Shown one piece after another: positions 22,492-52,824 of a DNA stretch of 64,000 nt. The stretch is from Patescibacteria group bacterium (GTDB taxonomy: Bacteria; Patescibacteriota; Patescibacteriia; JAHIZJ01). Position 1 is the first letter of the stretch, and each line of letters begins with the position of its first letter. Under the pieces are notes generated by a model. The model was not told the DNA's origin. It saw only the letters and a program-made list of their open reading frames with translations, and searched no databases. The stretch covers positions 245,036 through 309,035 of the forward strand of contig JAQTMH010000001.1 in the NCBI GenBank assembly GCA_028714495.1, read 5' to 3'. The translations under genes were made by a program, and so were the position numbers.

Positions 22492-22686
22492 ATGAACATG
22501 GTGGATTATAACTTCCAAGGCGCTACCAAGCCCTGCGAGCAATCAACGCATCAGCCGACGGGACGACCCGAAGGTCCGCACTGCGCTGGGCGGGAAAACT
22601 GTTGCTGGTTCCCGATGTGCGATCTGTCGCACAAAAACCCGCCTGCTCCACCGACCCGGCCTAAGACCGGCCGCATACCTTGCTGA
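22492..22686 (+). CDS. small Cys-rich protein (64 aa), hypothetical
   Basis: ATG at 22492 is preceded by GGGAGGAGGGAG RBS. Sequence ...CEQSTH...HCAGRENCCWFPMCDLSH...PPAPPTRP. An intrinsic terminator follows at 22709-22737. Confidence 0.4.
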   Translation: MNMVDYNFQGATKPCEQSTHQPTGRPEGPHCAGRENCCWFPMCDLSHKNPPAPPTRPKTGRIPC

Positions 22687-22708
22687 GACAGCTCTTCGCA
22701 CGACACAA

Positions 22709-35298: not shown

Positions 35299-35321
35299 AG
35301 TGTGTTTCGAAAATTAAAAAT

Positions 35322-36731
35322 TTATTCTTTATCTGGAGAAGGCTCTTCCTTCTCTGTTTTTTTCTTGCGTTTGGGCTTGACTGTCGGCTTCTCTTCCTTG
35401 ACTTTTTCCGCGGCTGGTTTTTCCTCGATCTTCTCCTCGACAACTGTTTCGTTCTTTGGTTCTTCCGCGACTGGCTCGGTCTTTGTTTCGTCAACATCCT
35501 TTTCAGCCTTTTCTTCAGTTTTGGGCGGGACCGTATCACCCTCTCTGATAATATCAATCTTCCAGCCAGTTAATCTGGCGGCGAGTCGGACGTTTTGTCC
35601 TCCCCGGCCGATGGCCAGTGATAATTGGTCTTCCTTGACCTCAGCCAGGGCGGTTTTTTCCGCCTCCTTGGTCTGGACGCTTAAAACCTTAGCCGGTGCC
35701 AGGGCATTGATGATAAATTTAACCGGGTCTTCTTCATATTCCACAATATCGATTTTTTCTCCGCCCAACTCCGAAATGACCGTTTGAACCCGGGTTCCGC
35801 GCTGACCCACGCACGAGCCGACCGGGTCAATGTTCGGCTCCAGGGAGGCGACGGCAATTTTCGTCCGCGAACCGGCCTCACGGGCGATTGATTTAATCTC
35901 CACCGCGCCCGAAGCGATTTCCGGCACCTCAAACTCGAAAAGTCTTTTCACCATTTCTGGGTGGGACCGCGACACAATAATCTCCGGTCCTTTTGGCGCC
36001 TGGCTGATGTTGACCAGGTAGAACTTCAGGCGCAGGCCTGGCTGGTAACTCTCACTCTCAACTCGTTCAGAGGGCGGCATGATTGCCGCGGTATCGCCTA
36101 AATCGACGAAAGTTAATTTACCCTCAACCCGCTGGATTGTCCCATTGATTATCTGGCCTTCTTTGTCCTTATAATGCTTAAAGACCGTTTCACGTTCAGC
36201 TTCGCGCAACCTCTGGATAATAACTTGCTTGGCTGTTTGGGCGGCCATCCGGCCATAGGCTTGGGGCGGGAATAATTCTGTTTTTATCACGTCGTCAACT
36301 TTTGCCTTAGGATTGTTTTTCTTGACTTCCTCAAGGGGTATCATGGTTTTCGGATCGTACGCCTTTTTTGCCTCAGCTTCGTCTTCAGCCGGTTCAGCGG
36401 TTTCTTTTTTATCCCCAACCTCTTTCTCTACCTCTTTCTTCTCGGTAATCGGAGCCAACTTGTTCTCTTGGAAAGCCTTTCTCCGCTCTTCCCGTTTTCG
36501 CTCTTCCTCTTCAATTTCTTCCTGCGTAATATCCACGACTGTTTTCACGTCGAAAACACGGCTTTGGGCCGTCTCAGTATTGAATTCAACCTTGATGTTC
36601 TGATTTTTTTCACCAAAATCCTTGCGGTAGGCCACCGCTAACGCCGCTTCGATCGTTTCAATAACCGACTCTACCGGAATATTCTTTTCCTCGCAGATTT
36701 GTTTGATTGCCTGGGTGATTGGGGAACTCAT
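35322..36731 (-). CDS. nusA: transcription termination/antitermination factor NusA with Lys/Glu-rich C-terminal tail
   Basis: NusA N-terminal domain, S1 and KH regions ('IVSRSHPEMVKRLFEFEVPEI', 'IGRGGQNVRLAARLTGWKIDI'). Confidence 0.85.
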   Translation of the reverse strand: MSSPITQAIKQICEEKNIPVESVIETIEAALAVAYRKDFGEKNQNIKVEFNTETAQSRVFDVKTVVDITQEEIEEEERKREERRKAFQENKLAPITEKKEVEKEVGDKKETAEPAEDEAEAKKAYDPKTMIPLEEVKKNNPKAKVDDVIKTELFPPQAYGRMAAQTAKQVIIQRLREAERETVFKHYKDKEGQIINGTIQRVEGKLTFVDLGDTAAIMPPSERVESESYQPGLRLKFYLVNISQAPKGPEIIVSRSHPEMVKRLFEFEVPEIASGAVEIKSIAREAGSRTKIAVASLEPNIDPVGSCVGQRGTRVQTVISELGGEKIDIVEYEEDPVKFIINALAPAKVLSVQTKEAEKTALAEVKEDQLSLAIGRGGQNVRLAARLTGWKIDIIREGDTVPPKTEEKAEKDVDETKTEPVAEEPKNETVVEEKIEEKPAAEKVKEEKPTVKPKRKKKTEKEEPSPDKE

Positions 36732-36954
36732 AGATCTATAGTCAATTTATAATTAATAATTCAGAAGGAAGAATGTTGGTTGTCCCGTTGCGGGATTTCC
36801 TAAATTGATAATTTTTAATTCTTAATTTTGAATTTCTTACTAAAATGGACCAGTTAATAAAGAACTAGTCCTAGCTTGAGTATAGCGGAACGGTAAAATC
36901 TTGGCAAGACTAAGTAGACGAGGATGGTCATCCTCGTCTACTTTATCTATTGTT

Positions 36955-38055
36955 CTATTTCATATCAGGCGGTGGCGGCGGGAAAAGCTGGTCGGTATGA
37001 TCCTCTTTTACTTCAGTCTTTTTTAATTCGGGGGGCGGTTCTTTATTCTCGGCAGGAGGCTTAAAGGGGTCAGGCGCCGGATTCTGGCGCGGTCGCCTCA
37101 CTAAGTTATCGATGAGTAGAATTAAGCCAACGGCCAAGATCATTAGGCCGACAACTAATAGCCAATTTGAATCCTCATCTTCATCAGTCTTTGCTGCCGT
37201 GGAATTTTCGGAGTTAGTATCGTCGGTTTTTTCTTCAGAGTTGGTCACCGGTGTTTTTTGGGTTTCCTGTCCGTCCGTTTTATCTGTTTCCTCGCCCTTC
37301 ACCTCGGTAGTTTTTTCACTTACTGCCTCTGGCGCCGGGTTCTGGGGAATAACAAATTCGATGATGGCCGAGGGTTGGCTGGCTTTGCCGTTTGGATCCT
37401 CGGCTAGCGCAAAAACCGTGTGCCGGCCTGGCGTCATTTCATAGTAAGTTTGATAGGAAAAGCTGGCCGCGCCAGATGGATGGTTTTTTACCATGAACTG
37501 GCCGTTTAATATCCCGTCGATATAAATCTTCACCAGCGAATCGTTAATCGCCAATCCGACAAACCATGGCTGGGTGGCTTTTGTCTGTTCATTTACCACC
37601 GGCTGAAACAGGGTCGGCGCCGACATTGGGTATTCCACGAAAAAGTTGAGCGTATTTGAGGATATACTCACTTGGCCCTTGGCGTCTGTAGCAGTTGTAA
37701 GCACCTTATGCCAGCCCGGCCGTAAATTTAAAAACGGCTCATAGCCAAAATTCGCCGTGCCAGAAGGGTCGTTTTTTACCATGAACTGGCCATTAAGCTC
37801 ATCATCAATAAACACCTTTATCAGCGAATCGTTCAAAGCCAACCCGGTGACAATGGGCTTGGTTTGGCTCGTGAAACTTCCGTCAGCCGGCGCGATTAGA
37901 GTTGGCGCGGGAAAAGCCGAGCCTTCGGCCACCGCGGCGGTAACTGAAGCTATCGGCCCGAATAAAACCGCGAAAATAATCAAAAAAACGAAAGCTATCT
38001 TCGTTTCTCGGTTTACCTTTTTCCCTCCTTTGGGCAAAAAGTTTATCTGTACCAT
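36955..38055 (-). CDS. surface protein with two Ig-like repeats, Thr/Glu-rich linker, C-terminal TM anchor and Pro-rich tail
   Basis: Two ~90-aa repeats ('...P.ITGLA.NDSL.K..ID..LNGQFMVKN.PSG...') resemble the Ig-like repeats at the C-terminal end of the giant protein. Confidence 0.55.
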   Translation of the reverse strand: MVQINFLPKGGKKVNRETKIAFVFLIIFAVLFGPIASVTAAVAEGSAFPAPTLIAPADGSFTSQTKPIVTGLALNDSLIKVFIDDELNGQFMVKNDPSGTANFGYEPFLNLRPGWHKVLTTATDAKGQVSISSNTLNFFVEYPMSAPTLFQPVVNEQTKATQPWFVGLAINDSLVKIYIDGILNGQFMVKNHPSGAASFSYQTYYEMTPGRHTVFALAEDPNGKASQPSAIIEFVIPQNPAPEAVSEKTTEVKGEETDKTDGQETQKTPVTNSEEKTDDTNSENSTAAKTDEDEDSNWLLVVGLMILAVGLILLIDNLVRRPRQNPAPDPFKPPAENKEPPPELKKTEVKEDHTDQLFPPPPPDMK

Positions 38056-38115
38056 CGCTCTGTTTATAAATTAGTTAATGTTTTTTCGGTCACTCCATCT
38101 TACAGTTTTATTACC

Positions 38116-38508
38116 TTAATCGTCAAGCGATTGATCGTCGAGATCGGAAATGGCGTTTTCTACATGTCTAATCTTGACCTTGTTTGATTGATTATCAAGT
38201 TCGACAACTATCAAATCGATCCGAAACCTTCTGTTTTCCAGCAAGTTTTTCATTAAATAATCTTGGGTTATTTTAGCTAAGGTTAGAGCCTTTTTATGTG
38301 TTATCGCTTCCTCTGCCAGTCCATATGTTTTACTTCTCCGGGTCTTTACTTCAACAAAAACAACCAGCTGGTTTTTCTGGCAGATTAAATCAAGTTCGCC
38401 TTTTTTAGTTCGGATGTTTTTCGCCAATACAATATAGCCCTGGTTTTCAAGATAACGCCGAGCCAGGGATTCGCCCAGCTGTCCAATTTTTATTTTTTCT
38501 TGGCCCAA
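38116..38508 (-). CDS. YraN-family (UPF0102) endonuclease
   Basis: 'LGESLARRYLENQGYIVLAKNIRTKKGELDLI...VVFVEVKTRRS' is the typical YraN pattern. Confidence 0.7.
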   Translation of the reverse strand: MGQEKIKIGQLGESLARRYLENQGYIVLAKNIRTKKGELDLICQKNQLVVFVEVKTRRSKTYGLAEEAITHKKALTLAKITQDYLMKNLLENRRFRIDLIVVELDNQSNKVKIRHVENAISDLDDQSLDD

Positions 38509-38563
38509 AATAGAAAAAGGCTTTCTCCCAAAAGCCGTCTTTTTGTCTAATTCTAGCTAAAAT

Positions 38564-39127
38564 CTATGGGTTAGGATTAACGAATAATAATCCGTAGTGG
38601 TAAGGACCAGCCTCAAAAGTCTCTAATAATTGAAGACCGAGGTCGCTGGCTATGGCCTTGATTTTCTCAGCTGGGACGCGGTCTTTTTCCAGCGGGCCAA
38701 ACGGCGCGCCCTGAGGCTTCCATTCAACCACCAACAGCATGCCTTCTCGCTTTAACATGCGCTTGGCTTCCTGCATCATTTCTTTATGCTTTTTCGTCTG
38801 GAACAAGGTATTAATCAGCAGAGCCCGATCTAAACCACCAGTCGGTATTTTAGTGGCGCCGTAGATCTCAAGATTTGACCAGACTGTTCTGACATTATTT
38901 ATTCCCTGCATCCGGGCCTTACTAATCACGCTGGCTAAAACGGACTTGAGAATATCAACCGCGTAAACTACGCCTTTTTCACCAACCGCTTTGGCTGACT
39001 GAAGGACAAAAACCCCGCTGCTCCCACAACCTAAATCAGCTACTGACATTCTGAAAGAAATGCCGGCTTTTTGGATCAGCTTCATTGGGTCGAGCAGCTC
39101 ATTGCCGCCCGGTATTCGTTCAACCAT
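38564..39127 (-). CDS. class I SAM-dependent methyltransferase
   Basis: 'VADLGCGSSGVFVL' motif I. 'VYAVDIL' motif II. Confidence 0.65.
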   Translation of the reverse strand: MVERIPGGNELLDPMKLIQKAGISFRMSVADLGCGSSGVFVLQSAKAVGEKGVVYAVDILKSVLASVISKARMQGINNVRTVWSNLEIYGATKIPTGGLDRALLINTLFQTKKHKEMMQEAKRMLKREGMLLVVEWKPQGAPFGPLEKDRVPAEKIKAIASDLGLQLLETFEAGPYHYGLLFVNPNP

Positions 39128-39168
39128 AGACTGTTTTAAGTAAATTCATTATACCAAAATATCAATGC

Positions 39169-39777
39169 CTAGACAATAAGATGCTTCATCGGTCGGTAGC
39201 TTTTGCGGTGGAACTGACTGACACCATGTTTTTTGATCAGGGCTAAATGGTGTTTCGTGCCATAGCCTTTGTGGAGATGGAAATCGTACTGGGGAAGTTT
39301 CTCGTGCTGGCCGATGAGAATTCGATCGCGCGTCACCTTGGCCAGAATCGAAGCGGCCGCGATGGAAAAAACTTTTTGGTCGCCGCGCACGATGGCTTGA
39401 CTCGGCAGTAAGTGATCAAACTTCAGCGCGTCGATTAAAAGATAGTCTGGTGCGACTGAAAGTTTTTTGATGGCCAGCACCATAGCCAAAATATTCGCCG
39501 GGCCGATTCCCTTTCGGTCAATTAACCGGTGGCTGACAATTCCGACGCTCCAGCTAATCGCCACCTTGGCAATCGCCGAAAACAATTTCTCCCGTTGGCC
39601 AGGCGAAAGCTGTTTTGAATCGCGCAAACCCTCTAAACGGATTCGCGGCGGCAAAATTACCGCGGCTGCCACAATCGGACCAGCCCAGGCTCCCCGGCCA
39701 GCCTCATCCAGGCCGGCGATATTCCGATACCCAAGCTTCCATAATTTTTTCTCCTCAAGCCGGCTTGGTTTTGTCAT
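39169..39777 (-). CDS. rnhB: ribonuclease HII
   Basis: 'AGLDEAGRGAWAGPIVAAAVIL' and 'DSKQLSPGQRE' motifs. Confidence 0.85.
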   Translation of the reverse strand: MTKPSRLEEKKLWKLGYRNIAGLDEAGRGAWAGPIVAAAVILPPRIRLEGLRDSKQLSPGQREKLFSAIAKVAISWSVGIVSHRLIDRKGIGPANILAMVLAIKKLSVAPDYLLIDALKFDHLLPSQAIVRGDQKVFSIAAASILAKVTRDRILIGQHEKLPQYDFHLHKGYGTKHHLALIKKHGVSQFHRKSYRPMKHLIV

Positions 39778-39946
39778 GGCTTAAGTATACTCTTCTTCAA
39801 GAAATACCGTAGGCGAGGTTGACCAACCTCGCCTATGTAGTATTTACATTACTATGTCCTAATAAACGACCTTTATCCAAAAAAATGCCCGACCGCATGG
39901 TGGGTCGGGCTCTAGTAAGAACTCTCAACAGTCTTGGATCAAGGTA

Positions 39947-41197
39947 CTACTGCCAGATCGTCGCGCTCGCATAAATTCCCTGGGCTGTTTCGTCGAATCG
40001 AAACGATGTCTCCAGCCGCAGATAGTCGACTTTCTTCCGCTGCATCGGGTCAGGCGTATTTGTCACGTGGATTTTGCATCCGAGAGTGATGGCTTTCCAG
40101 TCCTGGCCAGGGTCGTCGAGCGTGCGCGGACGAGAACCTGGGACCAAATCAGTGGCTGTCTGATAGACTAGACCGAGATAGGGGTTGTGAACCGGGCCGA
40201 AGACCCGGGGCCAAGTACCATATAGTGCGTACTGGGATTCCCGAAGCTCCGCTTCCATGCCCGCTTCGATATCGACGGTGGTAAAGGTAGCAGTCACCAG
40301 TCCAAAATCCACTGCGTCGTATCCCCGGCCCACGCCGAGCGTGCCAAAGTCTCGGTTTCGCACTACGCGTGATCGGCTGAGCGCGCCGTGAGCAAAGGAA
40401 TTAGCGATGGCGGAACTAACCGGCTGGTTCAAGGCACGCCCCCAGAGAGTGGCAATGCCTAGATAACAGGTTGCCTCGGGCTTCTTTCTCATGACAAAGA
40501 GCGCTGCTGGATTAGCGCCACGATTCTCAACATCGGCATAACGCGCGATCCCGCCGATCCACGTCGGCGAATCCTCCTGGTTCACCGCTGATCCAGCCAG
40601 AGCGAGTATTCGTGGGGCGCTTGCTTGCCAATCCAGGACAGAAATATACCGTTTTTCTTCGATCGGGCCGGCGTGTGATACTGCTTTCTCATTGGAGGCT
40701 CCCAAGTATAGTCCGAGGTTGCCATGCTGCACCCGCGCCGTACCGTCGAGATGCACAGTTTCATCAGCATCGCGTTCAGCCGAGAAACCGAGAGCGAAGT
40801 TCTTCCGCTCGTATGAAGGATACAGGCCAAACGCCCAGTAATCTTCGCCGAGCAAATACCGGGCGATCGAACCGGCCAGCTTGAGCTGAACCGGCGCGAG
40901 CGGCGCGCAGACCCCGAAATCAAGCGACTCTTCGTCAAGCTCGAGTCCGTATACTGGCGACACGCGGTTGTCGGCGTTCGAATACTCCAAAGCGAGTAGC
41001 CGCGTCCGATCCGGCGAATCCACATAGAATCGGAATCCGCCGTTCTTAATCGTCCCAACCTGTTCACTCCCGAGGTACCGATCCAGTTGACTGGCCTCGA
41101 CCGTGAATCGGTAGGGCACGATTGACTGGGCTGAAATCGGTTGGACAGCCAACACGCAGAAAAACGCGCACACCGCAAAAGCTAAACCGTATCGCAT
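39947..41197 (-). CDS. secreted beta-rich protein, possible outer-membrane barrel (in high-GC islet with fbaB)
   Basis: Signal peptide MRYGLAFAVCAFFCVLAVQPISAQS. Alternating hydrophobic strands. Aromatic residue near the C-terminus. Confidence 0.45.
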   Translation of the reverse strand: MRYGLAFAVCAFFCVLAVQPISAQSIVPYRFTVEASQLDRYLGSEQVGTIKNGGFRFYVDSPDRTRLLALEYSNADNRVSPVYGLELDEESLDFGVCAPLAPVQLKLAGSIARYLLGEDYWAFGLYPSYERKNFALGFSAERDADETVHLDGTARVQHGNLGLYLGASNEKAVSHAGPIEEKRYISVLDWQASAPRILALAGSAVNQEDSPTWIGGIARYADVENRGANPAALFVMRKKPEATCYLGIATLWGRALNQPVSSAIANSFAHGALSRSRVVRNRDFGTLGVGRGYDAVDFGLVTATFTTVDIEAGMEAELRESQYALYGTWPRVFGPVHNPYLGLVYQTATDLVPGSRPRTLDDPGQDWKAITLGCKIHVTNTPDPMQRKKVDYLRLETSFRFDETAQGIYASATIWQ

Positions 41198-41381
41198 TCG
41201 AGACCTCCTTGTGAACGTACTACTGCCGCAACTACCTCTAGCCAGGTTAACACAGCTTGTTTGCAGCCCTGCATATTATCACTTGTCAAATCAGATGGTC
41301 AAGTTACCAATGCCGCATTCAATAAATAAAAAGGGGCGTTTCTCGAAGGAGAAACCGCCCCAGGTCATTCAAAGGTTCAAA

Positions 41382-42458
41382 CTAGGCCACTGTGACCTCC
41401 GGACAGAGGTAGACGTCTTGAACCGCGTTCAGCAGCTCGACGCCTTCAGCCATCGGCCGCTGAAAAGCCTTCCGTCCAGTGATCAAGCCCATACCGCCAG
41501 CCCGCTTGTTGATGACTGCAGTACGGACTACCTGGGCAATGTCGTCCTTGCCAGAAGAAGCACCGCCTGAGTTGATAAGCCCGACACGGCCAAGGTAATT
41601 GTGAACTACTTGAACCCGACAGAGATCAATCGGATGAGGTGAAGACAATTTCGTGTACATCTCTTCCTTGAACTTGCCGAATCTCGCACCCCCCGCATTC
41701 ATCGCTTTGAACCCGCCATCGCAGGTCGGCAGCTTCTGCTTGATGATGTCAGCCTGAATCGTAGCGCCCAGATGATCGGCCTGGCCAGTCAGATCAGCGC
41801 TTTCTTCGTGGTTGACTCCTGCCACCTTGAAAGCCGGGTTGCGCAGATAGCACCAGAGGATGGTCGCCATGCCCAGCTGATGCGCCAGCTCAAACGCCTG
41901 GCTGACCTCAACGATCTGATGCCGCGACTCGGCTGAACCGAAATAGATCGTCGCGCCCACTGCCGCCGCACCCAGATCAAACGCCTGCTGAACGCTGGCA
42001 AACATGGTCATGTCCCAGATGTTGGGATGGCTTAGGAGCTCGTTGTGATTGAGCTTCACGATGAAAGGAATCTGATGCGCGTACTGACGTGCCATTGAAC
42101 CAAGCACGCCCAGCGTTGAGGCCACGCCGTTGCAGCCGCCTTCGATTGCGAGCTTCACAATGTTTTCGGGATCGAAGTATTCGGGGTTCGGCGCAAAGCT
42201 GGCTCCGGCCGAGTGCTCGATCCCCTGGTCAACCGGCAGAAACGAAAGATAGCCGGTCCCAGCCAAACGTCCATGATTGAACAGTCCGGCTAAGCTGGTC
42301 AAGACTCGACAGGAACGATCGCTCGCCGAACATACCCGATCAATGAAATCCGGTCCGGGCAGATGGAGCCGGCTGCTGGGCACTGTCTGACACTGATGCG
42401 TCAGCAGCTCCTCCGCCTCTTCACCAAGTAATTCGGCAATTCTGTCTCTGGTCAACAT
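41382..42458 (-). CDS. fbaB: class I fructose-bisphosphate aldolase, FbaB/DhnA type
   Basis: Near-colinear with E. coli FbaB as recalled ('[53 protein letters not shown]', '[18 protein letters not shown]'). Start [12 protein letters not shown] has AAAAGGAGG RBS. ORF track start at 42506 is an upstream extension. Confidence 0.85.
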
Positions 42459-42666
42459 CTGTTCCTCCTTTTGTTGACCGCCCTTGTTTGCGAAAGGACC
42501 TGCCAAAATCGGCTTTACTAGCTTAGCTCGTTTATTTCTTTTGTCAATTTTGATATTAACATTATATTAAAAACGCAGGCGCGCCTATATAACTTTTTTT
42601 AATAATCATAGGGTAAATTTCAGAGTATTATTATCGCCTCAACTCACGACACTGGGATAAACTAAA

Positions 42667-42686
42667 AGGCGGCTTCAGCCGCCTTC
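42667..42686 (-). terminator. intrinsic terminator downstream of gdhA
   Basis: Minus strand reads AAGGCGGC-tgaa-GCCGCCTT followed by TTTTAGTTT. Confidence 0.55.
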
Positions 42687-42725
42687 CTTCATTCTTACTT
42701 CTAAATTCTGAATTCTAAATTGCCC

Positions 42726-43970
42726 CTAGTACCCCCTTAACTTAATCGCCTCAGCCACCCGCGACACTGCCAAGATATACGCTCCCATGCGCAGGTCAAC
42801 CTGGTGGAGCTTGGCAGTTTCAAAAGTCTGCTTAAATGCTCGAGTCATTACCTTTCTTAATTGCGCCATGACCTCCTCTTCATCCCAATAATATTGCTGC
42901 ATGTTTTGGACCCACTCGAAATACGAGACTGTTACCCCGCCGGCATTTGAGAGAATGTCGGGAATGACCAGAATATTCTTTTTATTCAGTTTGTCGTCAG
43001 CCTCCGGGGTAATCGCGCCATTAGCCAATTCGAGAATGATCTTGGCTTTAATGCGGTTGGCGTTTTGACCCGTGATTTGATTGTCCAGGGCGGCTGGGAT
43101 GAGAATTTCGCACGGCTGTTCAAGCAATTTTGCATTAGTCAGTTTCTTGGTTCCGGGATAGCCCACCACTGATCCGGTTTTATCTTTGTATGTTTCAACT
43201 TTATTCGGATCCAAGCCCTTCAAATCCATAATCGCGCCTTTTGAATCTGACAAGCCGATAATTTTGAATTTCATCGAGTGGAGTATTTTGGCGGTATAGC
43301 TGCCGGCATTGCCAAATCCCTGGATTATCACCCGGCTGAAACGGTCGCACTTCACGCCCTTCATCCCGCAGACTTCCTGGAGCACGAAAATTCCACCCTG
43401 GGCTGTGGCGTACTGCCGGCCATGACTTCCGCCAATCTCCACTGGCTTACCAGTCACAATCCCCGGCACATTATAGCCAGTCAGACGGCTGGCCTCATCC
43501 ATGATCCAAGCCATAATCTGCGGGTTAGTATAAACGTCCGGCGCGGGAATGTCGCGATTCGGGCCGATGAAGCCGTTTAAGCCGCGCACATAGCCCCGGG
43601 TCAGCCGTTCTAATTCTCCGTGGCTCAGTTTTTTCGGGTCAACTACCACGCCGCCCTTAGCGCCGCCATAAGGAATGTCCATCAGGGCGCACTTCCAGGT
43701 CATCAGCATGGCTAGGGCTTTAACCTCGCTCAGATCGGCCTTTGGATGATAACGAACCCCGCCCTTGGTCGGACCGCGCGATTCATTATGCTGGACGCGA
43801 TAGCCGTGAAATACCTTCACCTTACCATCGTCCATCCGAACCGGAATATAAACTTGTAGGATCCGAATCGGATTGCGCAGGATGTTTAGAATGTCTTCAT
43901 TTAAATTTATTTTCTTCGCCGCCCGGTCAAGCTGGCGTAGGGCGTTTTGAAAGGGATTGGCTGCTGGCAT
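42726..43970 (-). CDS. gdhA: NAD(P)-dependent glutamate dehydrogenase
   Basis: '[11 protein letters not shown]' and '[15 protein letters not shown]' motifs. Confidence 0.85.
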
Positions 43971-43977
43971 GCTTGAT

Positions 43978-45195
43978 TTAATTTAATTGTTTAAGATACT
44001 GGGTTATTCCTTCTCGCAAAATGGTCAGGGCTTGATTTAGTTTATCATTTTCCAGGACAAAAGCCAGGCGGAATTCGAGCCGGCCATCTTCAGGCTTGAG
44101 ATAAAATCCGGTGCCCGGCGCCACCACCACGGTTTGGTTTCGATGAGCGAAGTCGCTGACCAGCCAGCGGCAGAACTTTTCGCTGTTGTCCAATTTCGGA
44201 ATCTTGATAAAGGCGTAAAAGGCTCCAGTCGGCTGAATATACTCAGCCCCGGGTAAATCGCCAAAGGCTCGAGTAACCATTTCGCGTCTGGCCCGGAACG
44301 TTTCTACGTAGGATTTGATATAATCTTGTCCATAAGCCAGAGCTGAAATAGCTGCGCGCTGGCTCGGCACCGGAGCTGAAAGCCGGCTTTGGCACATATG
44401 CCTGACCGCTGTCATAATCTCCTGGTCTCGGCTTACCAGGCAGCCGATCCGGCAACCGCATAGGCTGTAGCGTTTCGACACGCTGTCAAGCATTATTACC
44501 CGGCCCTTAAACTCTGGAAATTGGAGAATGCTTGTCGGCCTACCCTCATACACCAATTCGCGATATACTTCGTCAACAATCAATGCCAAGTTGTTTTCCG
44601 CTGCCAAGCGTCCGAGCGAGGCCAATTCCTCGCGCGAGTAAACATAGCCGCTGGGATTGGATGGATTGTCAAAAATAATCGCGCGGGTTTTGTCTGTCAC
44701 TTGCTGGCGCAGATTTTCAAATGGCGGCAAGCGAAAAGATTCCCTGCTTCTGACCAGGGACACGCTTCTCAATTTCAGACCCAGCAGCGTGGCAATGCTT
44801 AAATAGTTCGGATAGAAAGGCTCAAAAACCAAAACTTCGTCGCCGGGATCTGCCACCGCGGCCAGCGAAAAAAGTATCGCCTCGCTCGCCCCGGTGGTTA
44901 CGATAATTTCATCGGTGCTGATATTAACGCCGAAGTCATTATAATATTTTTGCCAGGCGGAAATCAGCTCGGGTTCACCAGACGATTGGCCGTATTTAAT
45001 TTTTCGCGAAGCAAAATCAGCCAAAGCCAAGCTGACTGACTGAGGCGGAAATTCATCCGGCTCGCCCAGATTCAGGTAATAAACTTGGCGGCCGGTTTTT
45101 TCGACCAATTGGGCGGTCGAAATCAGCAGGCGCAAGGGGGATTCTGGAATCTCCCGGCCGCGTTTTGAAATCCCGTTAGTCCTCATAAATCGCAA
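43978..45195 (-). CDS. class I/II pyridoxal-phosphate aminotransferase (aspartate aminotransferase-like)
   Basis: ~400 aa. '[14 protein letters not shown]' is a Lys-containing PLP region. 'GEPDEFPP' is near the N-terminus. Confidence 0.75.
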
Positions 45196-45253
45196 AGAGG
45201 TCTCGCGTCGCCTTCTTGATCGGCGGACGAACGAGACCTCGCTGGATAAATTA

Positions 45254-45580
45254 TTATTTTAAAATCTGATTAAGTTCGTCCGCGATCTTTTGCTTTGGCT
45301 GCGACCCGACCAATTGCTTGACCAGCTGGCCTTTTTGAAATATGACCAGGGTCGGGATGCTCATGACGTTGAATTTCCCGGCCGTGACTGGATTTTGGTC
45401 AACCTCGATCTTGCCAACCTTCACCTTGCCCTCAAATTCCTTGGCTAGCTCTTCGATTACCGGCGCGAGGGCCCGGCAGGGACCGCACCATGAAGCCCAG
45501 AAATCAACTAATACTGGTAATGATTCTTCTTTGACCACTTCTTGTTCGAAATTTTGATCAGTCAATGTTACTTCCGCCAT
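45254..45580 (-). CDS. trxA: thioredoxin
   Basis: 'WASWCGPCR' active site. ORF-track start at 45631 is probably an N-terminal extension. [11 protein letters not shown] is the likely start. Confidence 0.8.
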
Positions 45581-45704
45581 AATATTCTTTTTATTAATTA
45601 TTGGTTTATTAATTGTAAGCCAGTCAGTCAAAAAAGTCCAGAAAAGAAAAACGCCCTCCTCTATTCCTATTAGGAAGGCGCGAACCTCTATCAGTGGTAA
45701 TGGG

Positions 45705-45977
45705 CTAGACAGCCTGACCCGCAGGCTCTCTTTTGCCCAATTCCCGCTTCACACGATCAATGACTTGCTGAACCGTCCGGAAACACTCCACTTCGCCTTC
45801 TGGAATCTCGACCTTGAATTCCTCATTGAGAGCTGCGGCCAGATCGGGCACGTCATCGGGTCCGGCCCTCAGATCTTCAATGAGCCTCATCCCAGGCCCT
45901 ACCCTCTCCGACGATGTGTCCAATTGTCCTGCGATGACCTGTCTTGCCCGTTCCTCAACCGTACCTTGCCTTGGCAT
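45705..45977 (-). CDS. acyl-carrier-protein-like small protein lacking the phosphopantetheine Ser
   Basis: Alignable by eye to ACP ('IEDL.A..D.V.DL......EF..EI'). The DSL serine position reads 'GPDDV'. Confidence 0.4.
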
Positions 45978-46112
45978 ATTTTCCCTCCCATTTTCCGTAA
46001 AAGGTGAATGTGCTGACCGAATCTTAACAAAATCTTTAGAAAAGTCAAGTGCTTGTCTAGAAAAAAGTGCGCAAAAAAAGACCTCGAATCAAAGGTCATT
46101 TTTTCAATAATA

Positions 46113-47381
46113 TTATCGTCTGGCAGCTGGTCGGCGACGGCGCCTAGGAAAGTTCATGTGAAATGGCCGGCTGTTGCCATAAGGTGAGGTGGTCTGTATC
46201 CGAGTCGACGGTTGCGGCTGCTGAAAACGGGGTGGTTGGGGCCGGGCTGGCGGTAAATCAGGCAAGGCGGATATGCGTAGTGTCGTACGGATAAGCCGTT
46301 CAATCGCCCTTAAATCGCCGCGCTGGTCAGGCATGGCAAAGGAGATCGCCCGGCCTGGCTGTCCAGCTCGACCAGTGCGGCCGATCCGATGCACGTAGTC
46401 TTCTGCCTGTGACGGCAGGTCATAATTCACGACTAGTTCAATGCCGCGCACATCAATGCCTCGGGCAGCAATATCAGTGGCAACTAACACTCGGTATTTG
46501 CCGGACTTAAAACCGTCGAGCGCGTCCCGGCGCTGGTTCAGTGTTCGGTTCGAATGGATCTCAGCCGCTGGAATTCCCATTGACTTAACAGTACGAGTCA
46601 GTTTTTTTGCCGTATGCTTCGTGCGCATGAAAACGAGCACAGCGCCCCGAGTGTCTTGGAGCAATTTTTCAAGTAAACGAGTTTTTTCCGCTTTCGCCAC
46701 GACAAACACCTCTTGTTCGACAGTAGCCGGGGCAGTGCCTGATCGGGCTACCTCAATACGTACAGGCAGGCGCATTTGGCGCCGGGCTATCTGCATGATT
46801 GCGTCTGGAATTGTGGCTGAAAACAGCATGGTCTGTCGTTTAGCCGCCGGCGGTACAGACGCCAAAATCCGATTGATCTGGGGCGCGAAACCCATGTCGA
46901 GCATCCGGTCGGCCTCATCGAGGACGAGGATATGGACATCGTCGAGGCGAATATTTTTCTGCTCAAGGTGGTCGATCAGCCGACCAGGCGTGGCAATAAT
47001 AATATGGGGTTTTTTCCGAAGAGCCTCGAGTTGTTTGACTTGGGAAGCGCCGCCAATCAACACAGCGGTCCGCAAACCGACGCCGCGACCGATGTCGTGG
47101 AGCGCTTCATCCACTTGCATAGCCAGTTCGCGTGTCGGGAGAATAACCAAGCCACGGCCTTTTACCTGGGCCAGACGTTGAATCATCGGTATGCCAAAAG
47201 CAATCGTCTTGCCCGTGCCGGTTTGGGCCACTCCGACCACGTCTTTTCCCTCAATGGCCGGAGGAATTGATTGGTGCTGAATCGGCGTCGGCGTGGTAAA
47301 ACCCAGCCGCTCGAGCGTATCGAGAAGCTGCGGCGCGATGCCAAGACCGAGAAAGTTTTGTTGCTCTGTGTTAGTGTTCAT
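46113..47381 (-). CDS. DEAD-box ATP-dependent RNA helicase with Arg/Pro-rich C-terminal tail
   Basis: Q-motif, 'AQTGTGKT', 'PTRELA', 'DEAD', 'SAT', 'HRIGRTGR'. Confidence 0.85.
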   Translation of the reverse strand: MNTNTEQQNFLGLGIAPQLLDTLERLGFTTPTPIQHQSIPPAIEGKDVVGVAQTGTGKTIAFGIPMIQRLAQVKGRGLVILPTRELAMQVDEALHDIGRGVGLRTAVLIGGASQVKQLEALRKKPHIIIATPGRLIDHLEQKNIRLDDVHILVLDEADRMLDMGFAPQINRILASVPPAAKRQTMLFSATIPDAIMQIARRQMRLPVRIEVARSGTAPATVEQEVFVVAKAEKTRLLEKLLQDTRGAVLVFMRTKHTAKKLTRTVKSMGIPAAEIHSNRTLNQRRDALDGFKSGKYRVLVATDIAARGIDVRGIELVVNYDLPSQAEDYVHRIGRTGRAGQPGRAISFAMPDQRGDLRAIERLIRTTLRISALPDLPPARPQPPRFQQPQPSTRIQTTSPYGNSRPFHMNFPRRRRRPAARR

Positions 47382-47609
47382 AGAACGCGGAGAGTATAAC
47401 GTATTTTCACCGTTGCGTAAAGCACCCGAGACCGACGTGACGATTTAATCGGCGGCTGCTTCGATACGACGTTCAGTAGACAATGTCATTCTTGACTTTC
47501 TTAGATAATGGGCTAAGCTAGGCTCGACAGTTGATCTCTGACATCTCGCAATAGGCCGTATTTACACGGCGGTTGTGCACAACTACCTTTTATACCATGG
47601 AGGGAGGTC

Positions 47610-49436
47610 ATGAGGCCTAAGGAAATTACTTGGCAGTCTCTGGTCGGAGCATTCGTTGTCTCCACACTCATCGCAATGTCGTACCCCTACATCGTATTGA
47701 AGCTTGGCATGGGGCCAAATGTCTCCGTATTGGCCGCATTTCTCGGCGCGCTTTTCCTCATGGCTACGGCCAGGCGAACACGTGGTCAGAATGCAGTCCG
47801 CAACAACATCATCCAGACAGCCGCCACCAGCGCTACCTCGACCGCTTTCATGTGCGTGGTAGCCGCGGCCTTCGGCTACCTGAACATGAATGAGTCGGTC
47901 AGCCTCAAGGTACACATCACGCCCTGGCAGATGTTTTCGTGGCTATCTCTCTCGGGTACCATCGGCGTGCTGATTGCTGCGCTTTTCCGGCGCTACTTCA
48001 TCGACGACCCTGAGATGATCTTTGCCGACGGCGTGGCCGCAGCTGAGACCATCAATGTGCTTGACACAACGGGGTCGGAAGGCGGCCGGAAAATGCGTAC
48101 CCTGGGTTTTGGCGCCGTCGTCGGTGTCGCGGTTGCCTTTATCCGCGACGGGCTGCATAAGCTCGCGACCGTTCCGCTCATGATGCGATTCTCTATCGGC
48201 CTCGACTGGAGTCCGTTGTCCTTCGGCACGGGCCTACTCATCTCGCTCAACGTCGGACTCTCAATGTTGGCGGGAACGATTCTGGTCGCTTTGCTCGGCC
48301 CCCAGATCATGCACCTGGCGGGCCTGCAGATCGTACAGCAGGGCATCGCCCCGCAATATCTCAACCAGGTCATGGACTTTATTCGCTCTGGCGCGGTCCC
48401 GCTACCCGACTCACCGGAATGGCTTTTCCTGACGCAGCACGGCGGCATGGCCTTGAACTACCTGCGTGGCAACCACTACCCGATCATCATGCTCTGGTTC
48501 ATGTGGCCGGCGACCGCCATGATGATCACCGCTTCGCTCACGGCCGTGCTCCTGAAGTGGCGATCGATCACACGCATGTTCCAGTCTCTCTCCCTGAAGA
48601 AGAGTTCAACTACTGGCCGGCGCGAGGACGTCTCGCTCAAGACCATTGTCTGGCTGACCCTCGCCCTGACCGCATTCCTCGCTTATGTCCAGCACGAACA
48701 TTTCGGGATGCCGATCTGGCAAACTGTCATGTCCATTGTATTCAGCCTCCCGCTCATCCTCGTAGGCGTGCGGGTACTCGGCGAGACAAATCAGGGCCCA
48801 GTCAGTCTGATGGCCAACGCGCTCCAAGCCGTGTTCCGGCTGTTCTCGCCCCATGTCGGCCACAACCTTGTGGCCGCGGGCATGGCCGGAGACATCAACT
48901 CCCAGGGCGAGGGTACTATGCAGGTCTATCGCACCGGCCAACTTGTCGGCTCGACGCCACGCGTTCTGACCTGGATTCAGTTTAGCTTTATTCCGGTCGG
49001 AGCTGCCTCGGTGGCCATCATGTACCCGCTCTTAGTCCAGCGTTACGGTTTGGGTGAAGGTCTGGCCGCTCCGACCGGACTAAAACTCGCAAACATGGCC
49101 GTCCTGATGAGCAAAGGCCTTTCGGCTTTCCCGCCGGGCGCCCTCGCTTGGACGGTTGTGGCCGCGATTGCCGGCGTCTTCCTGACGCTTGGCAAAAGCA
49201 TCGGCAAACAGGCCTGGCTTCCGAGTGCGGCAGCGTTCGGCTTCGCCCTCATCCTCCCCGGTTTGCTCAATGTACCGATCGCTCTCGGCGCTGTTTGCGG
49301 CTGGTGGTGGAAGAAAGTGGCGCCCGAACACTATGATCGCCATCGCATCACGCTGGCTTCCGGTTTCATCGGCGGCGAAGCGCTGATCGCCGGCTTGCTC
49401 CTTCCGATTCTTTTCTACTTCGGCATCATTCGCTGA
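47610..49436 (+). CDS. OPT-family oligopeptide transporter (polytopic membrane protein)
   Basis: 608 aa with ~15-16 TM segments. Family call is based on size and topology only. Confidence 0.55.
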   Translation: MRPKEITWQSLVGAFVVSTLIAMSYPYIVLKLGMGPNVSVLAAFLGALFLMATARRTRGQNAVRNNIIQTAATSATSTAFMCVVAAAFGYLNMNESVSLKVHITPWQMFSWLSLSGTIGVLIAALFRRYFIDDPEMIFADGVAAAETINVLDTTGSEGGRKMRTLGFGAVVGVAVAFIRDGLHKLATVPLMMRFSIGLDWSPLSFGTGLLISLNVGLSMLAGTILVALLGPQIMHLAGLQIVQQGIAPQYLNQVMDFIRSGAVPLPDSPEWLFLTQHGGMALNYLRGNHYPIIMLWFMWPATAMMITASLTAVLLKWRSITRMFQSLSLKKSSTTGRREDVSLKTIVWLTLALTAFLAYVQHEHFGMPIWQTVMSIVFSLPLILVGVRVLGETNQGPVSLMANALQAVFRLFSPHVGHNLVAAGMAGDINSQGEGTMQVYRTGQLVGSTPRVLTWIQFSFIPVGAASVAIMYPLLVQRYGLGEGLAAPTGLKLANMAVLMSKGLSAFPPGALAWTVVAAIAGVFLTLGKSIGKQAWLPSAAAFGFALILPGLLNVPIALGAVCGWWWKKVAPEHYDRHRITLASGFIGGEALIAGLLLPILFYFGIIR

Positions 49437-49456
49437 TTTCCTCTTCGGAAATCGCA

Positions 49457-49486
49457 ACAGAGCCCGTCTCTAGGCTCTGTTTTTAT
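49457..49486 (+). terminator. intrinsic terminator after the transporter gene
   Basis: ACAGAGCC-cgtctcta-GGCTCTGT followed by TTTTAT. Confidence 0.65.
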
Positions 49487-49731
49487 ATTGTAATGAATGT
49501 TGATATGGTCCCATATTGCAAGACAATCATGCCCTTCATCAATGGGTGAATTCCACAATTATAGTCATATGTGCCCGAAGCCGAGAAAATGGATTTACTG
49601 ACTTAATTTTACATAGATGCTTGGCCAGTCAAATATATTCTAGCCGAACAAATACCGAACAGACAATTATTCCCTATTTTAAACCAAAAGGGTTGATTTT
49701 TATTTAATTTTTATTATAATCAAATGTACGT

Positions 49732-49807
49732 GGGCCTGTAGCTCATCTGGTAGAGCGCTTCCATGGCATGGAAGAGGTAAGGGGTTCGAGTCCCCTCAGG
49801 TCCACCA
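49732..49807 (+). tRNA. tRNA-Ala (anticodon GGC), CCA encoded
   Basis: GGGCCTG/CAGGTCC acceptor with G3:U70. Anticodon loop ATGGCAT. T-loop TTCGAGT. Confidence 0.9.
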
Positions 49808-49859
49808 AATTTAATTCCGATAACTACTTGCAATCAAAAATATATATCATGCCAATTAT

Positions 49860-50909
49860 ATGTTCAATGAAAATAAATTTTATTTGAATAAAGAGAGGAC
49901 TTCCCCAGACGCGGAAGAACAAGAAAGGATAAGAACGTCAAAAGAGGCTGTCAACGAAGTCATCGAGGAACGCGCACAATCTGTCCGCGAACGGTCAGTT
50001 GAATTTTCCCCAGAAATGGAAAGGTTTATTGCCGAAGCAAGGACCTGGCACGAAGAACGATTTCGTAAATTAGGCATAGATTGTATCACTTGGGGAAAGA
50101 ATTTTTTTAAAGTTCGTGAAGTCGAGGGTGGAACTTCCGGAAGTTCCGGATTAGGAATAAATCAGATTAAAGATTTAAGCACTGAAAGGCTTATGCCTAT
50201 TTCAATAGAGGAAGCAACGCGGCAAAACCAATTTCTTCCCATCGAAGTGCCGGATGAAATCCTTTCTGGAATTCCAAAAGGAGAGGCGGCAAGACAACTA
50301 CGCAATTACGTTGAGGCGTTGTTCATCGCTCACGAACTTTATCACGACGCGGCTCCAACATCAGTTTTATTCAAAACAGAAACCGATGAGACCACTGGGG
50401 AAAAATATCACGTAGCCGATTCGTTACCCTATGATCGGCATGGCGTACGTTATATTCGGCGCACTGAACACAGCGCTCCTCCGGCCGTTGAAGAGGGTTT
50501 AGCCATGACTATACAAAAACAAAGTGAGGGTTTTGCCGCTCAGCATTTTCCTGAAGGCGCCCGTATTTACCAGAAGCTATTGGATTATGTAGTAAGCAAT
50601 GATCCGAGGTTGAAAGATTATGACAGATCTCTTTTAAGTATCAGAAATTTTGATGGACATAATGTCAGGTATGGTCCGATGCAATACCTGGATGGATATA
50701 TTCTTACGACATTTTTATCTCGGCAAATTCCAAAATTTTTCGAAATAATTGAGCAAGCACGGATTAATGGAAAAGTCTTACCGCTTGCTCGCGCTGTTGA
50801 AAATAAATTTGGAAGAGGAAGTTATAAAAGGATTTTTACTGCTGGAGAAGATGAAGCACTCAATGTTTTAGAAGAGATAAGAGAGAAAGTAGACTCAAAG
50901 CAAAAATAA
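49860..50909 (+). CDS. hypothetical protein (349 aa, AT-rich)
   Basis: Long ORF followed by a hairpin/T-run at 50914-50946. Confidence 0.5.
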   Translation: MFNENKFYLNKERTSPDAEEQERIRTSKEAVNEVIEERAQSVRERSVEFSPEMERFIAEARTWHEERFRKLGIDCITWGKNFFKVREVEGGTSGSSGLGINQIKDLSTERLMPISIEEATRQNQFLPIEVPDEILSGIPKGEAARQLRNYVEALFIAHELYHDAAPTSVLFKTETDETTGEKYHVADSLPYDRHGVRYIRRTEHSAPPAVEEGLAMTIQKQSEGFAAQHFPEGARIYQKLLDYVVSNDPRLKDYDRSLLSIRNFDGHNVRYGPMQYLDGYILTTFLSRQIPKFFEIIEQARINGKVLPLARAVENKFGRGSYKRIFTAGEDEALNVLEEIREKVDSKQK

Positions 50910-52181: not shown

Positions 52182-52770
52182 TTTCCGCAACCCGCCTGAC
52201 AAAGCGTGGTGGAGACACGGGGAGTCACCGCCATAGGCGCCTGCCCGACGGCTGGCGGGGGTCCGCCTTATCTATAATTTTTTATTTAGTTGTGGCGGAG
52301 AACTCTCCTAATCTCTTCCATTTCCCCGTATTCGAAGTGTAAGCATCAAGGCGTGCCAAGTAAAAATTATGGTTTTTTGGTCTGTACTTGGTGGGCCTAG
52401 GCGGCCCCGGACTCGGATCCGGGGGAACCGCTGTTTCCACAATGCGAATGCGGGGTCTCGCCTGCTTACCTATGCTTGGTGGAGATGGGGGGACTCGGAC
52501 CCCCTACCTCAGTCCCGCAACCGGGTGGAACCGTGCCCCGCCGCATGGCGGGGCGACCTCCGCAACCCGCCTGCCAAAGCGTGGTGGAGACAGGGGGAGT
52601 CGAACCCCCGACCTTCGCAATGCGAATGCGACGCTCTACCAACTGAGCTATGTCCCCACCACGCGGCGGGCAGGTGCGAATGCGGCGCTCTACCAACTGA
52701 GCTAACGGCCCACCCTGGTGCGGGACGAATGCTGCGCTCTACCAGATGAGCTACATCCCCATCAAGCATA
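52182..52770 (-). repeat. array of tRNA-Ala-derived fragments (5' halves and CCA-ended 3' pieces) surrounding the intact tRNA-Ala(CGC)
   Basis: On the minus strand: GGGGATGTAGCTCATCTGGTAGAGCGCAGCATTCG...CACCA; GGGCCGTTAGCTCAGTTGGTAGAGCGCCGCATTCGCA...; the intact tRNA; then GGTAGGGGGTCCGAGTCCCCCCATCTCCACCA, ...CCGAGTCCGGGGCCGCCTAGGCCCACCA and GACTCCCCGTGTCTCCACCA. The overlapping six-frame ORFs here are artefacts. Confidence 0.6.
52582..52657 (-). tRNA. tRNA-Ala (anticodon CGC), CCA encoded
   Basis: Minus strand GGGGACAtaGCTCagttggtaGAGCgTCGCAttcgcatTGCGAaggtcGGGGGttcgactCCCCCTGTCTCCacca. G3:U70 present. Confidence 0.85.
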
Positions 52771-52824
52771 GGCGGGCAGGTCTTACCGCTGGACCATAGG
52801 CCCTAATATTAGCTAATTTTCGAT

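Follow-up and report, generated by a model that had tools for sequence, protein, structure and literature searches.

Flexible genomic islands have been described in free-living bacteria as segments that hold a fixed position between conserved genes and are exchanged through homologous recombination in the flanking core genes, and the classic islands of this kind typically carry surface-glycan genes. A second class, the tRNA-linked genomic islands, abuts tRNA genes, deviates in composition and differs in presence between close relatives. In bacteria of the Candidate Phyla Radiation (CPR), the mobility of metabolic genes has been described for glycolysis, as fructose-bisphosphate aldolase (FBA) is patchily distributed among them, class I FBA occurs in some of their lineages, and CPR FBA sequences are non-monophyletic with signs of lateral transfer (Jaffe et al. 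2020, PMC7304191). Here we analyzed a stretch of 64,000 nucleotides (the window) of a metagenome-assembled genome (MAG) of a Patescibacteria group bacterium (assembly GCA_028714495.1, contig JAQTMH010000001.1, positions 245,036 to 309,035), in which several GC-rich patches stand out, among them a cassette formed by a class I aldolase gene (fbaB) and the gene of a predicted β-barrel protein, and a segment with an oligopeptide transporter of the OPT family close to tRNA-Ala(GGC). We find it probable that these patches represent accessory ("flexible") genes set into a conserved CPR backbone, with histories decoupled from that backbone, and that fbaB and OPT came at an earlier time from high-GC bacteria outside CPR.

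The islets resemble flexible genomic islands in their fixed position between conserved genes, in the sharp breakpoints of identity and in a divergence that is decoupled from the backbone (higher in the fbaB-barrel cassette and lower in OPT), integrase or repeats not being needed for their exchange. They differ from those islands in being very small (one or two genes, 2-3 kb), in lying in a reduced CPR genome and in carrying genes of central metabolism and uptake. With the described transfer of glycolytic enzymes in CPR they share the nesting of a CPR class I FBA among non-CPR sequences, to which the window adds a strain-level view of cassette alleles exchanged between related CPR strains. The islets are in this sense a new example of a known form of genome plasticity, that is, ordinary flexible islands. 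In the mechanism that we propose, fbaB and OPT would have entered the CPR lineage first, OPT would then have passed between CPR strains after the split of their backbones, and the islets would have been exchanged by homologous recombination among related CPR strains.

Abrupt GC shifts at gene boundaries, in a MAG, a type of assembly prone to such errors, could also be produced by chimeric mis-assembly or mis-binning that mixed a low-GC CPR genome with higher-GC organisms, and an earlier reading of the DNA made from its letters alone (the sequence-only reading) had kept a chimeric contig as its alternative. Against this, a contig of a separate Logan assembly (SRR22315509; L001) is 100% identical to the window over 33,472-42,146 (8.7 kb, across the GC boundary at 39.8 kb), and a second MAG (GCA_028717285.1, locus L002; hereafter the sister) is colinear with the window over 30.2-52.9 kb, with the gene order kept through all boundaries except at the OPT segment. 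A Logan contig of a third assembly (SRR22315506; L017) joins the DEAD-box helicase gene, OPT and the tRNA-Ala region. Because these three independent sequences cross the GC boundaries, we give chimerism next to no probability and consider it excluded in practice; the window is a genuine piece of a Patescibacteria (CPR) chromosome. The FbaB, barrel and OPT proteins are exact database entries, all of them from one 'Patescibacteria group bacterium' MAG contig, and the gene content elsewhere in the window (NusA, trigger factor, H+-pyrophosphatase, a Mur ligase, pilin-like proteins, a 2,253-residue surface protein and many orphans) is compatible with a CPR genome.

GC content in 1-kb windows spans 0.39-0.60. 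As backbone reference we took 30 genes from the region 10.5-64 kb, which have a mean GC of 0.488 (sd 0.028) and a GC at third codon positions (GC3, largely free of amino-acid composition and given below as z against these 30 genes) of 0.542 (sd 0.039); the GC over 10.5-39.9 kb, used as a further backbone comparison, is 0.482. Higher values were obtained for 39,947-42,506 (0.561), 46,113-47,381 (0.557), 47,409-49,643 (0.565, with local peaks of 0.64), 19.1-19.7 kb (0.57), 22.3-22.7 kb (0.56-0.61) and 54.9-56.0 kb (0.575). GC enrichment is hence real at every place for which the sequence-only reading had proposed it, and the sliding-window GC and codon-usage analysis that it had suggested bore out the heterogeneity, but the third-position signal is uneven, with z values of 5.1 for OPT, 3.9 for orf195 (19,131-19,718), 2.9 for a Peptidase_M29 gene, 2.7 for fbaB, 2.0 for the barrel gene and only 0.5 for the DEAD-box helicase, which lies at backbone GC3.

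The cassette with fbaB and its surroundings comprise the following features.

39,169-39,777, minus strand: rnhB (RNase HII), backbone flank, with the right-hand recombination breakpoint at its 5' end
39,710-42,732, no strand assigned: variable cassette flanked by rnhB and gdh and containing fbaB and the barrel gene, an allele divergent from that of the sister
39,887-39,910, minus strand: intrinsic-terminator-like hairpin downstream of the barrel gene, 8 pairs (7 GC), then ATTTTTTT
39,947-41,197, minus strand: secreted 416-residue protein, predicted from an AlphaFold2 model as a 20-strand β-barrel of the outer membrane protein (OMP) type, of a rare unclassified family and ending in W-Q
40,150-40,400, no strand assigned: ~250-bp patch of the barrel gene in which identity to the sister rises to 99-100% from a background of 70-90%
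41,275-41,302, minus strand: promoter-like site between fbaB and the barrel gene, TTGACC-16-GATAAT (10/12 matches)
41,382-42,458, minus strand: fbaB, class I (Schiff-base, DhnA-type) fructose-bisphosphate aldolase of 358 residues (NF006707, PF01791)
42,726-47,381, minus strand: gdh, aminotransferase, thioredoxin, a small open reading frame (ORF) and DEAD-box RNA helicase, a backbone block with Pfam matches

Comparison with the sister (blastn) gave an identity of 83% over 39,946-42,425, between flanks of 96.7-97.7% and in a backbone of 94-98%. Sliding identity is 99-100% up to ~39,700 and from 42,733 on, and falls to 63-95% within the cassette. The two breakpoints, each less than 100 bp wide, coincide with the 5' end of rnhB (~39,700), where identity drops from 100% to 83% at 39,660-39,760 and the N-terminus of RNase HII is unlike that of the sister copy, and with the stop codon of gdh (42,733). 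Identity collapses in both intergenic edges of the cassette, and the sister carries an extra 239-residue orphan at these edges. The synonymous divergence (dS) from the sister amounts to 0.62 in fbaB and 0.55 in the barrel gene, compared with 0.02-0.19 in the flanking genes (median ~0.07), which makes the cassette about eight times more diverged at synonymous sites, while its ratio of non-synonymous to synonymous divergence (dN/dS) is 0.145-0.15. Positive selection as the force behind this divergence was ruled out by a dN/dS of 0.15 together with a dS of 0.6; because a dS of ~0.6 is accompanied by a dN/dS of ~0.15, the divergence of the cassette is old neutral divergence under purifying selection and not fast adaptive change. 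The patch at 40,150-40,400, which covers the region coding for an invariant SRVVRNRDF loop of the barrel protein, indicates mosaic recombination or gene conversion. Because of the roughly eightfold synonymous divergence, the purifying selection, the narrow breakpoints and the internal patch of identity, the simplest reading is a homologous replacement from a more distant relative, in which the cassette of one genome would have been replaced through recombination with a relative holding the same cassette at the same locus, and further conversion would have followed.

The identity of the aldolase is well supported by its profile matches, with 621.3 bits against the curated equivalog NF006707 (cut-off 327) and 195.6 bits against PF01791, the DeoC/LacD aldolase fold family. 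An upstream TTG, not used in database annotations, would extend the ORF to 42,506, and the true start is probably the Met that gives the 358-residue database form (P0001). The sequence-only reading had described the protein as nearly colinear with E. coli class I FbaB, and so it is: the two DhnA-type enzymes (NCBIfam PRK09250 group) are colinear over their full length and 64% identical, and have in common the DeoC/LacD TIM-barrel fold and the Schiff-base lysine. The only gap is of 5 residues, as E. coli FbaB is without a segment (residues 256-260) that the window FbaB shares with its 74-76% identical relatives. Within the PRK09250 group the window protein falls in the sub-model NF006707 and below the cut-offs of NF006705 and NF006706. 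Alignment to the T. tenax enzyme (1OJX) pairs ADIIK(240) with ADAMK(177), WCY with WSY(146), and VDQG with YDHG. In the T. tenax aldolase we take Lys177 to be the Schiff-base lysine, and Tyr146 and Asp24 to be catalytic. Judged by this alignment, FbaB appears to keep the lysine of the Schiff base as well as both catalytic residues, Tyr and Asp, and is predicted to be a bona fide class I aldolase, which would supply the aldolase step of glycolysis/gluconeogenesis, patchy in CPR.

The origin of this gene seems to lie outside CPR. Beyond the sister, the 118 non-self matches among the 120 listed are 69-76% identical to the window FbaB, and those with names belong to Eisenbacteria, Verrucomicrobia, Chloroflexi, Rhodothermaceae, Desulfobacca, Chlamydiota, Planctomycetota, Armatimonadetes and a Thermoplasmatales archaeon; besides the window's own MAG and the sister, no CPR-labelled FbaB was found among the 120 matches listed. 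The closest match on a long contig (P0006, 76% identical) adjoins a lipid A acyltransferase gene and genes of giant beta-helix proteins, in DNA with a GC of 0.685, and its FbaB gene has a GC3 of 0.84. A neighbour-joining (NJ) tree with E. coli FbaB as root places the two CPR sequences deep inside a star-like clade of multiple phyla, beside a group containing Eisenbacteria. The fbaB gene had been called proteobacterial in type, but the E. coli protein is only 64% identical and is the outgroup, and the matches at 74-76% come from Eisenbacteria and other phyla. The GC3 of the window gene (0.65-0.69) falls between that of the backbone (0.54) and the donor-like value (0.84). We conclude that fbaB is most likely foreign to CPR, but neither proteobacterial nor recently received from any sampled donor.

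The OPT segment, on the other side of the gdh to helicase block, has the following features.

47,409-49,643, no strand assigned: strain-variable segment of 2.2 kb with OPT (GC 0.565), replaced in the sister by ~75 unrelated bp according to junction alignments
47,610-49,436, plus strand: OPT-family oligopeptide transporter of 608 residues (PF03169; GC3 0.741, z = 5.1)
49,456-49,481, plus strand: intrinsic-terminator-like hairpin directly after OPT, 9 pairs, then TTTATATT
49,732-49,807, plus strand: tRNA-Ala(GGC), preceded by a promoter-like site (49,693-49,720), conserved anchor between two variable segments
49,808-50,909, plus strand: variable segment directly 3' of tRNA-Ala, with a low-GC orphan of 349 residues in the window and a YkuD gene in the sister

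No blastn match to the OPT segment was found in the sister. The protein reaches 171 bits against PF03169 (cut-off 25.8), with residues 5-593 on positions 1-615 of the 623 of the profile, and stays below the cut-off of TIGR00728 (107 vs 128); a consensus scan suggests a strong terminator behind the gene. The tRNA-Ala(GGC) gene is identical in the sister, as are conserved some 90 bp upstream of it, and homology between the two genomes ends right after the CCA end of the tRNA to resume at ~50,910. The DNA directly 3' of the tRNA is a third swapped segment, occupied in the window by orf349 (49,860-50,909; GC3 0.334, z = -5.3), for which no Pfam, NCBIfam, PHROG or PADLOC match was found. As in tRNA-linked genomic islands, variable segments lie to both sides of tRNA-Ala(GGC), the 3' one beginning exactly at the end of the tRNA, their composition is deviant (z = +5.1 and -5.3) and their presence differs between close relatives. 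Unlike in those islands there is here no integrase, duplicated tRNA 3' fragment or direct repeats, and OPT is on the 5' side of the tRNA.

The contig L017, which carries OPT at the same locus, allows the histories of the transporter and the backbone to be compared. Between this contig and the window the dS of OPT is 0.22 and that of the adjacent part of the DEAD-box helicase gene 0.76 (the latter being 0.10 between window and sister). Because the locus is the same and the divergence of OPT is ~3.5 times lower than that of the backbone gene next to it, OPT moved between CPR lineages after their backbones had split, and the most economical account is one import into the lineage of the window once this had separated from the sister. 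The nearest relatives of the protein outside its own cluster are 63-71% identical, the named ones being from Polyangiaceae and Zixibacteria (both 66-67%) and from a Patescibacteria MAG (63%). One of them (P0135, 69%) lies among genes of secretin, DUF1302/1329, MMPL and M16 peptidases in DNA with a GC of 0.617, its OPT having a GC3 of 0.88; OPT relatives adjoin M16, C92 and Tricorn peptidases. The GC3 of 0.74 in the window copy is the strongest sign of foreign origin in this study, and OPT is probably of older non-CPR origin. For fbaB and OPT alike, the closest relatives outside the CPR copies are found in high-GC genomes with neighbours of diderm type (lipid A acyltransferase for the former; secretin and DUF1302/1329 for the latter), and the position of the GC3 of both genes between the backbone (0.54) and these nearest outside relatives (0.84-0.88) agrees with partial amelioration. 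Seen alongside the M29 aminopeptidase and two backbone enzymes, the glutamate dehydrogenase and the aminotransferase, the transporter suggests, on predicted functions, a scavenging capacity for peptide uptake and catabolism.

The DEAD-box helicase gene (46,113-47,381) between the two variable regions had been listed as one of the GC-rich islet genes. Its product matches PF00270 (175.8 bits) and PF00271 (Helicase_C, 106.5 bits), and its translation contains the Q motif, Walker A (AQTGTGKT), DEAD, SAT and HRIGRTGR. Its GC3 is 0.560 (z = 0.5) with a z of 3.0 for the GC of codon positions 1 and 2; the copy in the sister has an identity of 97.8%, and the block to which it belongs (42,727-47,408) is 96.7% identical to that of the sister, with dS values of 0.08-0.19. 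Since the GC excess is confined to codon positions 1 and 2, the GC of this gene reflects an Arg/Gly/Ala-rich protein. It was rejected as an islet on account of its backbone GC3 and its identity to the sister, and is an ordinary backbone gene.

The sequence-only reading had interpreted the islets as recent acquisitions made directly from a diderm, proteobacterial-like donor. FbaB is indeed colinear with that of E. coli, yet at 64% identity the latter is the most distant sequence in the tree; the neighbour of fbaB is OMP-like and one barrel homologue (42% identical) lies in a MAG labelled Gammaproteobacteria, yet the barrel family is mainly from CPR. The outside relatives of FbaB and OPT stand in diderm-type contexts, yet the top non-CPR matches (76% for FbaB and 71% for OPT) are from non-proteobacterial or unlabelled sources. 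The raised GC would suit such a donor as well, but the helicase gene, which shares it, is backbone, OPT is common to a more distant CPR strain (L017), and the cassette is found at the same locus in the sister with deep allelic divergence, which makes it older than both genomes. The taxonomy of the best matches, examined for FbaB, OPT and the barrel, gave nearest relatives that are not proteobacterial, the named ones being mostly Eisenbacteria and other phyla for the first, Zixibacteria, Polyangiaceae and Patescibacteria for the second, and Patescibacteria for the third. A recent transfer from a proteobacterial-like donor is in our view very improbable. Horizontal acquisition as such is upheld for fbaB and OPT, which look ultimately foreign given their high-GC outside relatives, but a recent date is not supported, as the best sampled non-CPR proteins reach identities of only 76% and 71%.

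A second alternative takes the islets for native CPR genes whose composition was shaped by expression-linked codon usage, GC-biased gene conversion and amino-acid composition, with the cassette under balancing or diversifying selection on old alleles. Amino-acid composition alone lifts the GC of the helicase gene by 2.5 sd, but the GC3 of OPT (z = 5.1) is far beyond the backbone range and an OPT of another Patescibacteria genome (L018) is without such an excess. The barrel family and some OPTs do occur in other CPR genomes, and the OPT tree shows no nesting of the window copy within a non-CPR clade; against this, the 118 closest non-self FbaB matches listed hold no CPR-labelled sequence, and FbaB nests among many phyla. 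GC-biased gene conversion would be expected at recombination breakpoints, with which the islets do coincide, but the low-GC orphan beside the same tRNA shows that the hotspot takes DNA of either composition. Diversifying selection, finally, is at odds with the values of dN/dS (0.15) and dS (0.6), which point to old neutral divergence. We regard a native origin as unlikely, although it is less so than a proteobacterial one.

Several points weigh against our interpretation of accessory genes with decoupled histories. The GC3 deviations of fbaB (z = 2.7) and of the barrel gene (z = 2.0) are modest, the neighbourhood of FbaB in the NJ tree is star-like and singles out no donor lineage, and the taxon labels of the MAG proteins are those given by their depositors. 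Either genome could be the recipient of the cassette, two genomes having been compared without an outgroup strain. At the OPT and tRNA-Ala junctions (47.3-51.0 kb) no integrase, IS element, flanking direct repeats, phage or defence signature was found. The comparison with L017 covers no more than 735 nt of backbone, the dS of OPT could be somewhat lowered by codon bias, and loss of OPT in the sister with homogenisation is an alternative that is not strictly separable from gain in the window. A rough NJ tree places the window OPT beside, and not inside, the clade of Zixibacteria and Polyangiaceae. Other OPTs from Patescibacteria branch basally in it, and one of them, that of L018, matches the genome around it in composition; OPT could hence be old in CPR, its high GC3 then needing another explanation.

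With these reservations, the result is a corrective one, as the GC-rich patches show neither a fresh proteobacterial import nor a mis-assembly. The sequence-only reading was largely right in what it observed and only partly right in how it explained it; the events that can be seen directly are homologous replacement and exchange between related CPR strains. These reduced and presumably host-attached bacteria still exchange DNA within their population, and a class I aldolase, performing a core step of glycolysis, and a peptide importer belong to the exchangeable pool, which agrees with and sharpens the picture of a mosaic CPR metabolism (PMC7304191).

The protein encoded beside fbaB deserves separate consideration. 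That fbaB is adjacent to the gene of a secreted, β-barrel-like protein, as had been noticed from the sequence, agrees with its signal peptide and the predicted 20-strand barrel. Its N-terminus reads MRYGLAFAVCAFFCVLAVQPISA/QS, a Sec signal peptide judged by eye, and in the model a helix at residues 2-16 is followed by strands. No Pfam, NCBIfam or PDB sequence match (PDB at E <= 10) was found for the protein, and a Pfam search of 22 members of its family at E <= 1 gave no match either. AlphaFold2, run with an alignment of 9 sequences, yielded a model with a pTM of 0.73 and 20 long antiparallel strands, one helix (258-271) and then a low-confidence loop that holds the SRVVRNRDF motif invariant in the family. 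The strands are amphipathic, with a mean hydropathy of +1.2 vs -0.8 on alternating faces. The top Foldseek matches were all outer membrane barrels (AlgE, OccK/OprD, TonB-dependent receptors, PelB, CdiB) with a probability of 1.0 but with TM-scores of only 0.3-0.4. Membership in a known family was rejected, as sequence searches failed and structure gave similarity at the level of the fold class only. Most members of the family end in ...[S/T]-x-W-F/Y/L, similar to the β-signal of the barrel assembly machinery (BAM); the window protein and its clade, ending in ...T-I-W-Q, do not have the aromatic C-terminal residue of this signal. The protein shares with outer membrane β-barrels of 16-22 strands (AlgE, OccK/OprD porins, TonB-dependent receptor barrels and PelB) the signal peptide, ~20 long amphipathic antiparallel strands in its predicted structure and, family-wide, a C-terminal W-F motif, and differs from them in its low TM-scores, the lack of a sequence-family match, its terminal Q and a host lineage that is regarded as monoderm.

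An exhaustive profile search showed that the family is rare, with 42 clusters among 1.84 billion representatives. Its named members come from Patescibacteria (three, one of them on a 697-kb contig), Kerfeldbacteria, one Edwardsbacteria MAG and the 'Gammaproteobacteria' MAG mentioned above (42% identical); scans for the family returned one locus in genome contigs and three in metagenomes (narrow alignment), and the contexts that we read look like small CPR genomes. Because the named members are mostly Patescibacteria and the contexts CPR-like, the barrel does not point to a diderm donor, as had been supposed from its OMP-like character, and by its sequence relatives it appears to belong to a rare family found mostly in CPR and not to be a proteobacterial import. 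Linkage with fbaB was not found in other lineages, where the neighbours of the barrel gene differ: Peptidase_M29 in L003 and L004, DUF2807 in L015, L016 and L021, and GH130 in L013, L014 and L022. Within the window, consensus scans suggest that fbaB and the barrel gene could be transcribed separately, the latter having its own promoter-like site and terminator; a weak terminator-like hairpin is also present at 41,355-41,338.

One of these neighbours occurs in the window as an islet of its own.

54,880-56,001, plus strand: Peptidase_M29 (aminopeptidase) gene, GC-rich islet with a Pfam match (GC3 0.655, z = 2.9)

In two metagenomic contigs with a GC of 0.58 (L003, 323-2,846; L004, 205-2,728) a barrel homologue directly adjoins a Peptidase_M29 gene, each being 56% identical to the respective islet gene of the window, in which the two are 14 kb apart. 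Because of this adjacency, the barrel and M29 islets may share a source lineage. In two further lineages (L015, 11,354-12,433; L016, 5,155-6,234; L021, 10,437-11,168) the barrel-family gene has DUF2807 (GIN/toastrack-like) adjacent or near, followed by Peptidase_C39_2 and TSP3-repeat genes, surroundings that may form a conserved envelope-related neighbourhood.

CPR are regarded as monoderm (PMC8871954; bioRxiv 10.1101/2021.05.31.446380), and nothing specific on OMP or porin proteins in CPR was found in the literature. That the barrel proteins constitute a rare but true OMP-type transmembrane family, with a BAM-style C-terminal signal in most members and under purifying selection, in Patescibacteria thought to be without an outer membrane, is quite doubtful in our judgement. 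Were it true, certain CPR might possess an outer layer, so far unrecognised, in which the barrels reside, or else episymbiotic CPR might export the barrel to the outer membrane of the host cell so as to draw off metabolites. An affinity for anionic solutes, sugar phosphates for instance, would be in keeping with the Arg-rich invariant SRVVRNRDF loop and with the linkage to fbaB in this genome. The family, if real, bears on the cell envelope of CPR or on how CPR cells tap their hosts; a barrel family in a supposedly monoderm lineage is the one real curiosity of this study and could prove surprising.

The earlier list of GC-rich places was not complete. The largest GC-rich block of the window, 1.0-10.4 kb, had been left out of it, and so had a low-GC islet at 49.6-51.7 kb (GC 0.406). 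The former has a GC of 0.556, GC3 values of 0.62-0.79 and the highest codon-usage distance from the backbone in the window; its genes (1,000-10,400) are on the minus strand and encode pilin-like proteins (N_methyl motif, 3,109-3,576) and orphans. The patch at 22.3-22.7 kb, listed before among the GC-rich segments, is intergenic: the stretch 22,300-22,700, upstream of the gene of the 2,253-residue surface protein, contains no ORF of >=100 residues. The single RNA-family match in it is to the SAM riboswitch (22,304-22,425), below threshold (22.6 vs 44.4 bits; E = 0.024). The 2,253-residue secreted protein (23,010-29,771) has many repeats, and its terminal domain pattern recurs twice in a protein of 366 residues (36,955-38,055), in the gene of which 37,453-37,558 and 37,741-37,846 are ~75% identical. 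The two proteins, probably located at the cell surface, are conserved in the sister.

A further region of unusual structure surrounds a second alanine tRNA gene, tRNA-Ala(CGC), at 52,657-52,582 on the minus strand (region 52,390-52,790; positions 1-640 of the sister locus L002), which is preceded by two copies resembling a tRNA 5' half and followed by two resembling a 3' half. The first 5' half (acceptor GGGGATG) pairs 7/7 with the first 3' half (CATCTCC), including G3:U70, and the 16-nt leader of the former forms 13 Watson-Crick pairs and one G-U pair, of 16, with the trailer of the latter. The sister has the same layout with another allele of the central tRNA (~80% identical), a 22-nt hairpin in a D-loop and ~60 extra nt, the region being 79% identical between the two genomes vs 97% for the backbone. 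The region may be an integration hotspot with nested debris of att sites, or else a tRNA gene that has been interrupted, and it accounts for a spurious GC-rich 'ORF' at 52,369-52,749.

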